From a virus (lineage: Duplodnaviria > Heunggongvirae > Uroviricota > Caudoviricetes), in IMG/VR virus record IMGVR_UViG_2660237930_000001: 12,927 bases of DNA; one strand, written 5' to 3'. The stretch's first letter is position 1, and each line of letters opens with the position of its first letter. Of this stretch, positions 3,879 to 11,080 are shown one piece after another. The notes under the pieces are model-generated. The model worked only from the letters and a program-made list of their open reading frames with translations. It did not search any database and had not been told where the DNA came from. A program made the position numbers and the translations under genes.

Positions 3879-4172
3879 ATGAAAAAAATGTTGTTTTCTG
3901 CCGCTCTGGCAATGCTTATTACAGGATGTGCTCAACAGACGTTTACTGTTGGAAACAAACCGACAGCAGTAACACCAAAGGAAACCATCACCCATCATTT
4001 CTTCGTTTCGGGAATTGGACAGGAGAAAACTGTGGATGCAGCCAAAATTTGTGGCGGCGCAGAAAATGTTGTTAAAACAGAAACCCAGCAAACATTCGTA
4101 AATGGATTGCTCGGTTTTATTACTTTAGGCATTTATACTCCGCTGGAAGCGCGTGTCTATTGCTCACAATAA
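3879..4172 (+). CDS. bor: Bor lipoprotein (serum-resistance lipoprotein), lambda-type
   Basis: The 3831-4172 track ORF contains MKKMLFSAALAMLITGCAQQTFTV...EARVYCSQ; the ATG at 3879 gives a 97-aa protein with a lipobox (LITGC) matching lambda Bor as recalled. Opposite strand to the lysis genes, as in lambda. Confidence 0.9.
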   Translation: MKKMLFSAALAMLITGCAQQTFTVGNKPTAVTPKETITHHFFVSGIGQEKTVDAAKICGGAENVVKTETQQTFVNGLLGFITLGIYTPLEARVYCSQ

Positions 4173-4665: not shown

Positions 4666-4820
4666 GACATCAACACTCCAACAGCCAGAAACCACGGCCA
4701 CGCATCGTTGCCATTGAATGCGAGCAACGCTGCCATGAAAAAGCAAATCATGCTCATTGTTGCCCCCACAAACAGACTTCACGCTCAATCTCACGGCGAG
4801 TCATCAGCCCTTTCCATTGC

Positions 4821-5252
4821 TTACCGCCAGCGTATGTCCAGCGCCGTAGAATGATCACATGCGCCTTTGATATCGCCCTGGTTTATTTTGCGAAGAAGCG
4901 TCGATGTTCTGAAATTGCCAGCGCCCACGTTGTAAACGAATGAGTAAAGAGCGCCGCGCGTTGTTTCCGGTATATCGACTGTGATGTACGGGTTAATTTG
5001 TCTGGCGACAGTGGCAAGGTCTTTATTCAGGAGGGCTTTGCATTCTGCTTCGGTATACGTTTTACCGAGCATGATGTCTTTTCCGGTGTGTCCGTGACAT
5101 ACAGTCCATACGCCAACGATATCTTTGTATGGTATGTAGCTGACACCTTCCAGGCCATCGTCACCACTCGGACCAGTGATGAGCACAGACGCTATGGCAA
5201 CAGCCCCACCACCAATAGCAGCAGCAATAGCCTTGCGTAATGATGGCGACAT
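4821..5252 (-). CDS. R: Phage-21-type SAR endolysin (T4-lysozyme family), apparently truncated by a +1 frameshift; the C-terminal about 30 aa continue in another frame to a stop at 4754-4756
   Basis: 143-aa [62 protein letters not shown]... has an N-terminal signal-anchor-release segment and lysozyme core. The frame shifted by one nucleotide across 4850-4853 reads ...[32 protein letters not shown], ending just upstream of the Rz start. Confidence 0.85.
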
Positions 5253-5700: not shown

Positions 5701-5744
5701 TTTGTGAGAATGCAGACGGGGCTACTGATTTTTTGTGAGAATGC
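5701..5744. repeat. Two perfect 13-bp direct repeats TTTGTGAGAATGC (5701-5713 and 5732-5744), 31 bp start-to-start
   Basis: Read directly from the sequence; the flanks are also similar (CTAAATGATA / CTACTGATTT upstream). Lies in the AT-rich intergenic region between S (-) and the porin gene (+). Confidence 0.6.
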
Positions 5745-6004
5745 CACCGAGTGTTCAAAACACCACCACAAATACATAAGAAAACTTCAACAAATAACCA
5801 AATAACCAATGAATAATTTCCGATGTTATTTTTAGTTTGTTTAAATTAAGCTAAAGAATTATAGAGCGCTTATAAATAAGTGCCATTAATATAAATTAGC
5901 TAATAGATTTATTTTCGTTCAAACAAGAGCCATGAATAGGATTAGATAGAAAAGGTTCAGATAAAAATAGAGATCTACTTCACAAATTAAATGAGAAACT
6001 AAAA

Positions 6005-6095: not shown

Positions 6096-7178
6096 ATGAA
6101 AAAATTAACAGTGGCAATTTCTGCTGTAGCTGCATCAGTACTGATGGCGATGTCTGCTCAGGCAGCTGAAATTTATAATAAAGACAGTAACAAGCTGGAT
6201 CTATACGGGAAAGTTAATGCCAAGCACTACTTTTCCTCTAATGATGCAGATGATGGTGATACTACTTATGCCCGTCTTGGCTTCAAAGGTGAAACCCAAA
6301 TCAACGATCAACTGACTGGTTTCGGTCAGTGGGAATATGAATTCAAAGGCAACCGTGCTGAATCTCAAGGTTCTTCCAAAGACAAAACCCGTCTTGCATT
6401 TGCAGGCCTGAAATTTGGTGATTACGGCTCAATCGATTACGGCCGTAACTACGGTGTAGCATACGACATCGGTGCGTGGACTGACGTCCTGCCAGAATTC
6501 GGTGGTGATACCTGGACCCAAACAGATGTGTTCATGACTGGTCGCACTACTGGTGTTGCAACTTATCGTAACAACGACTTCTTTGGTCTGGTCGATGGCC
6601 TGAACTTTGCTGCTCAGTATCAGGGTAAAAATGACCGCACTGACGTAACTGAAGCCAACGGTGATGGTTTCGGTTTCTCCACTACTTATGAGTATGAAGG
6701 ATTCGGCGTGGGTGCAACCTATGCTAAATCAGATCGCACTGACGGTCAGGTCGCCTATGGTAAGAGCAAATTCAATGCCTCCGGCAAAAATGCGGAAGTA
6801 TGGGCTGCAGGCCTGAAATATGATGCGAACAATATCTATCTGGCTACCACATATTCTGAAACTCAGAATATGACCGTTTTTGGTAATAACCATATTGCAA
6901 ACAAAGCACAAAACTTTGAAGCAGTAGCACAATATCAGTTTGACTTCGGTCTGCGACCATCTGTTGCTTACCTTCAGTCAAAAGGTAAAGACCTTGGTGT
7001 TCATGGTGACCGAGACTTAGTCAAGTATGTCGATGTCGGTGCTACTTACTACTTTAATAAAAACATGTCCACTTTTGTTGATTACAAAATCAACTTAATT
7101 GACGATAGTAAGTTTACCAAAACAGCTGGTATTGATACCGACGACATCGTCGCTGTAGGTCTGGTTTATCAGTTCTAA
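6096..7178 (+). CDS. nmpC: Outer-membrane general porin of the OmpC/OmpF family (NmpC / phage Lc-type), prophage moron between Q and the lysis genes
   Basis: 360-aa ORF with signal peptide [30 protein letters not shown]..., porin hallmarks and C-terminal ...VGLVYQF. GGG Shine-Dalgarno 6 nt upstream. Opposite strand to the late genes, as for nmpC in DLP12 and lc in PA-2. Confidence 0.9.
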
Positions 7179-9338: not shown

Positions 9339-9723
9339 AAACGTCCCCGTTTAGCGCAGAAGTCACAGGAGTTGTTCAGGCTCCGGTGATACAATTATGG
9401 CGAATTGATTATTCATAATCAAACAAGATAAGGTCTCAAACTTCATGCAAGCCAAGATTTATTTCTGACAGAATTATACAAAGAAGCTATTGGTCAGAAT
9501 CTACTCGGACTGTAAAACATACGCATAACCTTAAGCTCTCACTTTAAGCATTGTTGAAATAATAGCCGTCAAGTACAACCTTAACCACGACTGGGATATT
9601 TCCCTAGCTACCACGAGTTGTACTGCTATTAAACTGCCGTTAAATTCAGTAAGAGAATTTCATCCGATAAGTCAAGGCATGTAAAACATAAAAATTAACA
9701 AGATATTATCATCTGCAACACTA

Positions 9724-10731
9724 TTGTATGGTATGTCAATGGCCATGTCGGTCGGGAGTTGTGCAACACCTGTCCAGACTAATTTTCCTGGTTACACCCC
9801 GGGTGCAGATATCATTAGTGTTTCACCCACCAGAAACCAGGTCGATCTCATTGGTGATGTTGTTTATTCCCAGATAAAAGGAACTCGTTCTGTCAGACAG
9901 CTTCACATGTCAGTTCTTGTCCCGCGAACAAATGATTTAAAACCAGCCATTATTTATTATCCCGGCGGCGGATTCATGTCTTCTGAACATGACAAATTTA
10001 TTGAAATGAGAATGGCTCTGGCTGAAGCTGGTTTTGTTGTGGCCGCTGTAGAATACAGAACAATTCCTGATACATTTCCAGCACCAGTTGAGGATGGGAA
10101 AGCTGCAATACGTTACTTGAGAGAACATGCCAGCGATTATGGGATTGATCCTCAAAGAATCGGAGTTCTGGGTGACTCTGCCGGTGGATGGCTTGCCCAG
10201 ATGATGGGAACTACAAATGGTGACAAAACCTTTAATAAAGGTGACTTTCTTCAGCAATCAGCAGATGTTCAGGCAGTTGCCACACTTTATGGGATTTCTG
10301 ACTTGTTGAATATTGGCGAGGGGTTCCCTGAATCAGTGCAGGAGGTTCATCGATCTCCTGCCGTAACCGAAGCCTTAATGATCAATGGCCCTGCATTCAG
10401 AAGTTTTGCGGGAGCCCCCATAACAGCGTCAAAAGAAAAAGCGCTAAACGCCAGTCCAATCGGACATATGAAAGGAGTAAAACCCCCATTTCTTATTATG
10501 CATGGTAGCAAAGACACTCTGGTTTCACCTGAGCAAAGCGCCAAACTATTCAGGATGTTGAAGAAGAACGGCGATAACGCTGAGTACGTTCTGGTAGAAG
10601 GGGCTGAGCATGGCGATAATACATGGTATCAGCCAATTATTATAAACAGAGTTGTTGAGTGGTTTACTAAAAACCTGGGAACCCCCATAAAAACCGCTAC
10701 CCAACAACAAAAAACAAACGCTGACCTGTAA
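9724..10731 (+). CDS. Alpha/beta-hydrolase fold esterase/lipase-like serine hydrolase (cargo gene); probable lipoprotein if translation starts further upstream (in-frame to 9688)
   Basis: 335-aa ORF with oxyanion-hole-like YYPGGGF, nucleophile elbow GDSAGG (G-x-S-x-G), and C-terminal IMHGSKDTLV and EGAEHGD consistent with a catalytic Asp and His. Visibly more AT-rich than the flanking phage genes (by eye, not computed). The 9724 start is a TTG; in-frame ATGs at 9733, 9739 and 9745. Confidence 0.8.
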   Translation: MYGMSMAMSVGSCATPVQTNFPGYTPGADIISVSPTRNQVDLIGDVVYSQIKGTRSVRQLHMSVLVPRTNDLKPAIIYYPGGGFMSSEHDKFIEMRMALAEAGFVVAAVEYRTIPDTFPAPVEDGKAAIRYLREHASDYGIDPQRIGVLGDSAGGWLAQMMGTTNGDKTFNKGDFLQQSADVQAVATLYGISDLLNIGEGFPESVQEVHRSPAVTEALMINGPAFRSFAGAPITASKEKALNASPIGHMKGVKPPFLIMHGSKDTLVSPEQSAKLFRMLKKNGDNAEYVLVEGAEHGDNTWYQPIIINRVVEWFTKNLGTPIKTATQQQKTNADL

Positions 10732-10734
10732 AAA

Positions 10735-10765
10735 GCAGCCCGCACTTATGCGGGCTAACCTATTT
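10735..10765 (+). terminator. Rho-independent terminator candidate after the hydrolase gene
   Basis: AGCCCGCA-CTTA-TGCGGGCT (8-bp stem) beginning about 5 nt after the stop, followed by a moderately T-rich CTATTTC. Confidence 0.5.
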
Positions 10766-10768
10766 CAC

Positions 10769-10795
10769 TCGATTCAAAAGAAATTATTTTTAATG
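10769..10795. repeat. Left copy of an imperfect direct repeat of about 27 bp (perfect 15-bp core AAATTATTTTTAATG at 10781-10795) flanking the recombinase gene
   Basis: TCGATTCAAAAGAAATTATTTTTAATG here versus TCGTTTAAAAACAAATTATTTTTAATG at 12842-12868, same orientation. Confidence 0.6.
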
Positions 10796-11080
10796 GGGGC
10801 GTGACCAGCCTCTCGGTGCTCAGATACTTAATGAAGTGGAGTGGCATTCAGGCAAGAGGTTAACATCACCTGTTCGCCATAACCAAGCACGTGCACAAAG
10901 TTTGTTATCAGTGAATTGTTTTGTGATTGGGTATTGTTGAGCTACTAGAGCAAGAATGCCAACATCCAGTGGCAGTGCCTATAGTAAAACTATAGCTCAG
11001 GGCGCTTCGTTCAAGATAGTTAATATCATATTAGTCACTTTACTTTCATACCATAGCACGGTTGAAAAAGTGATTATTAC

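Follow-up and report, generated by a model that had tools for sequence, protein, structure and literature searches.

When accessory or prophage genes of bacteria decay into pseudogenes, loss of the start codon is a well-known early step. Unusual start codons can also be retained, as in infC and pcnB, where they are conserved and have a regulatory role. The non-canonical starts confirmed in Escherichia coli are AUU in infC and pcnB only, and no AUA start has been confirmed (bioRxiv 10.1101/063800). On a strong E. coli reporter, Hecht et al. observed AUA initiation at 1–2% of the AUG level, with values of 0.02–3% on other constructs and methionine at the N-terminus (bioRxiv 10.1101/063800). Here, we compare with these systems an E. 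coli prophage hydrolase gene of which one allele opens with ATA.

The DNA analysed, a stretch of 12,927 nucleotides referred to as the window, was a DLP12-like lambdoid prophage of E. coli. Its gene order was portal, head-tail joining, terminase and nohD; iss; rzpD, rrrD and essD; an ompC-like porin; quuD, ylcG, rusA, ybcO, ninE and ybcN; the hydrolase gene on the opposite strand; and the ybcK recombinase and emrE. Given this gene order and its opposite strand, the hydrolase gene counts as cargo of the 'moron' type within the nin region, convergent with ybcK. The GC-rich hairpin between the two convergent genes (Table 1) is likely a terminator. A scan for consensus promoters returned four sites against 4.0 expected, none of them on the plus strand 5' of the hydrolase gene, and no Rfam family reached its gathering score in the whole window. 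No paper was found in a literature search for the hydrolase gene, and we know of no earlier description of the ATA allele or its lineage distribution.

Table 1. Position of sequence features around the hydrolase gene in the window.
Feature	Position	Strand	Basis or distribution
Weak Shine-Dalgarno-like AAGG, 10 nt 5' of codon 9688; unchanged across aligned alleles	9674..9677	+	
ATG-TAA two-codon 'start-stop', in frame, 3 nt 5' of the real start; common to ATG and ATA alleles	9679..9684	+	
Full-length hydrolase frame, 347 codons plus stop, opening with ATA	9688..10731	+	translation
Mutated start codon, ATA in the window; derived G>A at 9690	9688..9690	+	sequence comparison
Predicted signal peptide with lipobox-like SVGS-C	9688..9762	+	PS00013 rule, full-length form only
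In-frame internal ATGs at 9733, 9739 and 9745; the first two are gene-caller substitute starts (332 aa, 330 aa)	9733..9747	+	
Second derived change C>T, Leu33>Phe, in a conserved LPGY stretch	9784..9784	+	same 4/682 records as ATA
Far-downstream ATG (Met97), chosen by some gene callers on ATA DNA, giving 251 aa (P0125)	9976..9978	+	
GC-rich hairpin 5 nt past the hydrolase stop, between convergent hydrolase and ybcK; scored T-run on the minus strand	10736..10757		

Within the hydrolase frame, the window reads ATG at 9679, TAA at 9682, AAC at 9685, ATA at 9688, AAA at 9691 and ATT at 9694, and further on TTG at 9724, ATG at 9733, 9739 and 9745, and TGT (Cys) at 9760. The frame was open from 9688 through the TAA at 10729–10731. 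The peptide encoded from 9688 is (I/M)KINKILSSATLLYGMSMAMSVGSC-ATPVQ, the first 25 residues of which resemble an export or lipoprotein signal. A first-pass annotation of this DNA had described the ATA at 9688, the in-frame TAA just 5' of it, the AAGG element and the codons ATT at 9694, TTG at 9724 and ATG at 9733, and all of these were found in the sequence. The end of the signal peptide, which it had placed at 9735, had to be moved: the signal-like span covers 9688–9762, with the Cys codon at 9760–9762. The AAGG was indeed positioned 10 nt 5' of 9688, but it is weak. Its best duplex with the 3' end of the 16S rRNA, at −3.2 kcal/mol, did not stand out from ORF-internal 20-mers (mean −2.8, sd 2.7). 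The AAGG alone is no evidence for a start at 9688. Even in the ATG allele the Shine-Dalgarno element is weak, and initiation may depend on the AU-rich context or the upstream start-stop.

An in-frame ATG at 9679–9681, absent from the first-pass annotation, lies directly 5' of the TAA at 9682. The possibility that this ATG was the original start and the TAA a nonsense mutation in codon 2 was considered and rejected, as ATG-TAA was identical in all ATG alleles; RefSeq also starts the intact protein at 9688.

Among 5426 complete E. coli genomes, 681 contained the hydrolase gene. The state of the start codon was determined with exact 61-mers centred on the site in the 682 complete E. coli records containing the gene. 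The ATG 61-mer was matched exactly in 677 of the 682 records and the ATA 61-mer in four only (UPEC132, YP3, GN02350 and N50), while the one remaining record departed from the ATG 61-mer at some other base. The UPEC132 segment was 100% identical to the window over 9400–10800, ATA included. Strains A13, H105 and Rb-50 had ATG in a 140-nt context otherwise identical to the window (including AAGG and ATG-TAA), and RefSeq annotates in these three strains a 347-aa coding sequence that begins at the equivalent of 9688. All four of the aligned ATG alleles had ATG at 9688–9690, and the copies of MS20658 and Z0117EC0117 were otherwise identical there.

Beyond E. coli, a homologue search yielded 2311 homologues at E ≤ 1e-10, of which 33 were aligned. 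The N-termini in this alignment were signal peptides that lined up with the E. coli extension, those from other genera included. The closest non-E. coli genes had ATG at the aligned position (MKR..., MKI...). Of two close outgroups, P0005 starts with ATG and reads MKRYCLYLPTSLLCGMSLIFSTGC, and at the P0002 locus an in-frame ATG AAA ATA ... encodes MKIHHMCLPATLLYGISMMVSAGC. As ATG occupies the aligned position in the outgroups, it is the ancestral, and overwhelmingly common, state at 9688 and ATA is derived. Given the ATG records, the RefSeq start, the aligned signal peptides and the PS00013 match described below, the N-terminal extension from 9688 is more than chance. The first-pass annotation had proposed that either translation initiates at a rare non-ATG codon or the start codon was lost by a change of ATG to ATA. 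The second option was borne out by the 677 ATG against four ATA records and by the outgroup ATG. Aligning the homologous genes, as it had suggested, placed ATG at this position, and homologues starting at the equivalent of 9733 without the extension, which it had named as contrary evidence, were not found among those compared.

A second base was linked to the ATA. The 9784T 61-mer was matched exactly in the same four records as ATA and in no others of the 682. No complete genome had 9784T without ATA; the linkage of 9690A and 9784T was complete, with no intermediate seen. In a multiple alignment of the whole window and five near-identical prophages, the derived bases common to the ATA carriers, taken against the nearest ATG prophages (MS20658 and Z0117EC0117), numbered exactly two: G>A at 9690 and C>T at 9784. 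Over 12.9 kb, the prophages of these two strains had an identity of at least 99.8% and, inside the gene, differed at 9690 and 9784 only. The residue affected by the second change, Leu33, was at least 90% conserved in the 33 homologues and is Phe in the ATA haplotype. A candidate for an intermediate with ATG and F33, the 347-aa F33 protein P0123, was rejected, since its locus (L010) has ATA.

The four complete ATA genomes belonged to independent isolates from China (urine), the USA (blood) and Australia (dog uterus), and a CSF isolate. GN02350 is assigned to phylogroup B2 and ST12, and UPEC132 to B2 with no ST assigned (PMC11203468). The window represents a fifth ATA copy, identical to none of the others (99.9% over 12.9 kb), with private differences that include a frameshifting indel at 4850. 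Further assemblies with the same ATA DNA were L010, L011, L012 and L013. Downstream of the ATA, the frame was free of stops and frameshifts in the window and in all four complete genomes; the sole addition was L33F, and decay had not gone past two substitutions. L013 had lost 1 bp of a C-run at 9797, which is probably noise; neighbouring genes are broken in that assembly too.

Because of the private differences of the window, such as the indel at 4850, its assembly may be imperfect, and the ATA could be taken for a sequencing or assembly error. We consider this vanishingly improbable. The same base occurred in L010, L011, L012 and L013 as well as in four complete genomes of independent origin, sampled on three continents; it was always linked to 9784T, and the change is a substitution and not a homopolymer indel. 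As ATA occurs in independent isolates and in a non-identical window copy, assembly error is excluded. From the genome comparison, the ATA is a derived, clonally inherited start-codon loss, neither a sequencing error nor a conserved non-canonical start. The combination of 9690A and 9784T cleanly marks a B2 sub-lineage (ST12 in GN02350) that occurs in humans and dogs.

The product of the full-length frame matched the Pfam family BD-FAE (PF20434; 3.2e-44, 151.4 bits against a cut-off of 26.8) with residues 80–290, covering profile positions 7–214 of 215. A match to Abhydrolase_3 (PF07859) had a value of 9e-23, and the matches to HSL-type esterases in NCBIfam were all sub-threshold. The nearest solved structure by sequence was Lip_vut4 (6nkf; E = 1e-36, residues 48–330), followed by acetyl-xylan and carbohydrate esterases. 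Invariant in the 33 homologues were PGGG at 92–95, GDSAG with Ser164, Asp276 and His308. By analogy with the family, this pattern fits a Ser164-Asp276-His308 triad with a PGGG glycine oxyanion hole. Judged by profile and motifs, the hydrolase is a BD-FAE-family serine esterase. One homologue, from Dickeya, carries the source name 'ferulate esterase'. At the two closest outgroup loci, the gene was located directly 3' of a phenolic-acid decarboxylase gene (PF05870), with an adjoining LysR regulator at L014. The decarboxylase neighbour of the closest non-E. coli relatives suggests that the enzyme is a hydroxycinnamoyl (feruloyl) esterase. Codon differences among ATG alleles were more often synonymous than non-synonymous (11:4, 14:10 and 4:2), and the gene is therefore constrained where the start codon is kept.

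The PS00013/PS51257 lipoprotein rule was applied in the following form: {DERK}(6)-[LIVMFWSTAG](2)-[LIVMFYSTAGCQ]-[AGS]-C, with the Cys at 15–35 and K/R in the first 7 residues. The full-length N-terminus agreed with PS00013 in its pattern match, in Cys25 and in Lys2 and Lys5. The layout comprised an n-region with Lys2 and Lys5, a moderately hydrophobic core (best 12-residue Kyte-Doolittle mean 1.3), Cys25 (9760–9762) and Ala at +2. The strict lipobox [LVI][ASTVI][GAS]C did not match the V-G-S-C of the hydrolase, which has Gly at −2. The Cys was unevenly conserved: it was fixed in E. coli alleles, with a Cys>Tyr variant in 0 of the 682 records, and of the three closest outgroups two (P0002 and P0005) kept it, whereas the relatives P0001 and P0004 have Tyr. 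The Cys>Tyr of the cluster representative P0001 had been considered as an E. coli variant, which was rejected since it occurred in no complete genome. Homologues at ≤72% identity had signals of the signal-peptidase-I type (AxA-type).

Export of the hydrolase is well supported by these predictions, and a lipoprotein in the E. coli subclade is plausible. Ala at +2 predicts outer-membrane sorting under the +2 rule, if the hydrolase is lipidated. Of the lipoprotein signal that the first-pass annotation had proposed, the charged n-region, the core and the agreement with PS00013 were retained, while the lipobox proved atypical and the distant homologues had signal-peptidase-I type signals. Its statement that starts at 9724 or 9733 would give no usable signal peptide was upheld. 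The forms from 9724, 9733, 9739 and 9745 all failed PS00013, with 5–12 residues before the Cys and no basic residue.

Four competing starts are annotated in public databases for the same DNA. Exact-sequence look-ups returned 104 contig records for the 347-aa call with the ATA at 9688 written as Met, 72 for the 332-aa call from the ATG at 9733, 184 for the 330-aa call from the ATG at 9739, and 36 for the 251-aa call (P0125) from the ATG at 9976. The intact L33 protein was found in at least 1000 contig records. By these counts, the ATA haplotype is not rare in absolute terms and the ATA-carrying lineage is a successful one. RefSeq lists the 330-aa protein WP_001251751.1 from 9739 in all four ATA genomes; the NCBI annotation of L010 has the 347-aa product from ATA. 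The 251-aa P0125 had been a candidate for an independent inactivating allele elsewhere. It was rejected, as L011 and L012 contain the same ATA DNA with another gene call and match the window identically over 9640–9985, ATA included. Four starts for identical DNA inflate protein-family counts and hide the probable non-function of the allele, for which start-codon-loss variant would be a better database label.

Taken at face value, these calls would mean that translation shifts to an internal ATG (9733, 9739, 9745 or 9976), with a truncated cytoplasmic esterase that is relocalised and not silenced. RefSeq selected 9739 in all four ATA genomes, other callers picked 9733 or 9976, and the catalytic domain (residues about 80–330) is kept by the 330-aa and 332-aa forms. 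However, such starts are gene-caller fallbacks and not evidence, and four rival calls on identical DNA amount to no clear signal. The anti-Shine-Dalgarno duplex energies at the internal ATGs (−2.1 to −2.8 kcal/mol) were at background, and the TTG at 9724 likewise had no Shine-Dalgarno-like pairing above background. The 332-aa and 330-aa products are without the n-region and most of the h-region, and it is improbable that selection would have favoured a residual half signal peptide (MSMAMSVGSC...) on a protein in the cytoplasm. The 251-aa product is without the invariant PGGG oxyanion-hole motif. A shift to an internal ATG is therefore considered highly unlikely.

The reading that we favour, with a probability of about 0.84, is the loss of the start codon through one G>A at 9690 in a B2 lineage, leaving a near-null allele or a leaky hypomorph. 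A single transition would have destroyed the ATG of an exported, probably lipid-anchored prophage esterase. The mutation would have arisen once, within phylogroup B2, and would have been passed on clonally together with L33F. The weak ribosome-binding site would still place ribosomes at 9688, where the initiator tRNA would decode AUA at approximately 0.02–3% of the AUG rate, and the normal precursor would be made in trace amounts at most. The ATT at 9694 is 16 nt from the AAGG. The downstream ATGs would be without Shine-Dalgarno support, and their products would not be exportable because nothing of the charged n-region and little of the hydrophobic core is left. We infer from the sequence that the ATA silences or mislocalises the hydrolase. 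The allele would mark the onset of pseudogenisation in a prophage cargo gene that is dispensable. Points against this reading are the intact downstream frame, the many contig records of the haplotype, the NCBI annotation of L010 from ATA and the weak Shine-Dalgarno element that the ATG allele itself has. Since a trickle of AUA initiation is to be expected, a lost start and a rare non-ATG start are not mutually exclusive. L33F, a single event at a conserved residue, would be compatible with relaxed constraint.

Initiation at AUA is measurable and yields an N-terminal Met, the frame was intact in five of five ATA copies compared, the allele occurs on several hundred contig records, and the NCBI pipeline calls a 347-aa product from the ATA. 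These observations could be explained by an ATA that is a working, selected non-canonical start, with the esterase kept low or made IF3-sensitive as with the AUU of infC and the full-length lipoprotein exported. Given the intact frame, the ATA allele may be functional at a low level. However, the intact frame is uninformative on selection, as only two substitutions separate the ATA copies from their intact sisters. The ATA was not conserved (4/682 complete records, missing from every outgroup), and the linked L33F, which alters a residue at least 90% conserved, is explained better by relaxed constraint than by tuning. No confirmed AUA start exists in E. coli (bioRxiv 10.1101/063800). We consider a selected ATA start very unlikely. 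The same low standing applies to its specific form, a low-efficiency start by which the B2 lineage would keep a surface lipoprotein esterase at trace level, for example with less immune or phage recognition. A functioning selected ATA would be the first documented natural AUA-initiated gene in E. coli.

Start-codon loss in the B2 lineage carries little biological weight in itself: one more accessory prophage gene would be switched off in one clone. If the esterase aids colonisation of the gut or urinary tract, for instance through hydroxycinnamates set free from dietary fibre, the ATA lineage would be a natural knock-down.

Compared with described systems, the hydrolase shares with the BD-FAE family (PF20434; bifunctional feruloyl/acetyl-xylan esterases, HSL-like alpha/beta hydrolases) the profile, PGGG, GDSAG, Asp276 and His308. 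Unlike the gene at the closest outgroup loci, the E. coli gene stands alone as prophage cargo without a decarboxylase partner, and its signal is of the lipobox type, not of the signal-peptidase-I type. Like the lambdoid prophage moron lipoproteins Bor and Iss, the predicted precursor has a positive n-region, a hydrophobic core and small residues before the Cys. The iss gene on the same prophage (3879–4172) encodes a textbook LITGC lipobox. In contrast to the Bor/Iss type, the V-G-S-C lipobox of the hydrolase is atypical and its core only moderately hydrophobic, and lipidation is a prediction.

With infC and pcnB, the ATA allele shares an AUN near-cognate codon in the start position and, presumably, low-rate initiation with fMet-tRNA. 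The AUU codons of those genes are confirmed working starts, whereas for the hydrolase 99% of alleles, and the outgroups, have ATG there. The conservation of a non-AUG start that marks the infC/pcnB type was not found for the hydrolase, with ATG in 677 of 682 records, ATA in four and ATG in the outgroups. A sequence-based test for start-codon loss found a derived mutation of a canonical start and no alternative start that would preserve a functional protein. Most likely, the ATA allele shows gene decay at an early and ordinary stage and not an unusual translation start. As in known start-codon-loss alleles, a one-base change has converted ATG to a near-cognate codon in a dispensable, horizontally acquired gene, the allele is clonal with a linked non-conservative change, and the frame is intact; we see no essential difference from such alleles.

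Four different translation starts have been annotated in public collections for one identical stretch of DNA, the hydrolase gene with ATA as its start codon (ATA allele; 9688-10731; protein records P0122, P0123, P0124 and P0125). These starts are listed in the table together with the other features.

Between the AAGG element and the hydrolase start is the two-codon ATG-TAA start-stop, 1 nt 3' of the former and 3 nt 5' of the latter. In the alignment, it was the same in the ATA allele and the ATG allele, the form found in most E. coli records, and it was not kept before the esterase gene at the nearest non-E. coli loci. The true hydrolase start could face competition from this start-stop or be fed by it through termination-reinitiation. 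Within the approximately 290 bp upstream of the hydrolase (9395-9687), a consensus scan detected no plus-strand sigma-70 consensus matches and an Rfam scan detected no Rfam families.

Coordinates of the features (window positions unless a locus is named; L014 and L017 are loci of the closest non-E. coli homologues)
Feature	Position	Strand	Remark
iss lipoprotein gene (bor-like, "increased serum survival")	3879-4172	plus	
rrrD lysozyme gene	4754-5252	minus	
ompC-like porin gene	6096-7178		
ATG-TAA start-stop, two codons	9679-9684	plus	in frame with the hydrolase
Annotated start, ATA given as Met	9688		347 aa; public annotation of ATA-allele DNA
Annotated start, ATG	9733		332 aa; public annotation of ATA-allele DNA
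Annotated start, ATG	9739		330 aa; RefSeq WP_001251751.1, ATA-allele DNA
Annotated start, ATG	9976		251 aa; public annotation of ATA-allele DNA
Decarboxylase-esterase pair, L014	2478-4047		
Decarboxylase-esterase pair, L017	1315-2889		

The lipobox Cys of the predicted signal peptide (residue 25) was replaced by Tyr in the aligned homologues P0001 (a 90%-cluster representative, 4 contigs) and P0004 (75% identical), a replacement detected in none of the complete E. coli genomes. The Tyr in these two homologues suggests that the enzyme does not depend on lipid anchoring. One further assembly with ATA-allele DNA (GCA_949813115.1) had an additional 1-bp deletion in a C-run at the equivalent of position 9797, which frameshifted the hydrolase gene. 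Since the calls of the neighbouring ybcN and ybcO were likewise broken in this assembly, the deletion is probably long-read homopolymer noise and not further decay.

Elsewhere in the prophage, rrrD had AA at 4850-4851 where the five near-identical prophages in the whole-window alignment had C. This 1-bp insertion, private to the window in that comparison, frameshifts RrrD past residue 133, so that it ends at 143 aa versus 165, and may reflect either genuine decay of the gene or a mistake in assembly. The iss gene, on the plus strand amid minus-strand late genes and with a textbook lipobox (LITGC), is a second moron of the prophage carrying the hydrolase. Stretches of 31 bp (5701-5731) and 8 bp (5791-5798) were missing from the same five prophages, both within an AT-rich, likely regulatory region that precedes the ompC-like porin gene. 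The 31-bp piece opens with TTTGTGAGAATGC, which occurs again directly 3' of it, and the 8-bp piece duplicates CAAATAAC in tandem; both resemble indels mediated by repeats.

The esterase gene of the closest non-E. coli homologues was located directly after a gene for a phenolic-acid decarboxylase (PF05870), and at L014 two further carboxylesterase genes and a divergent LysR regulator were located upstream. This gene context is lost from the E. coli prophage copy of the esterase gene.
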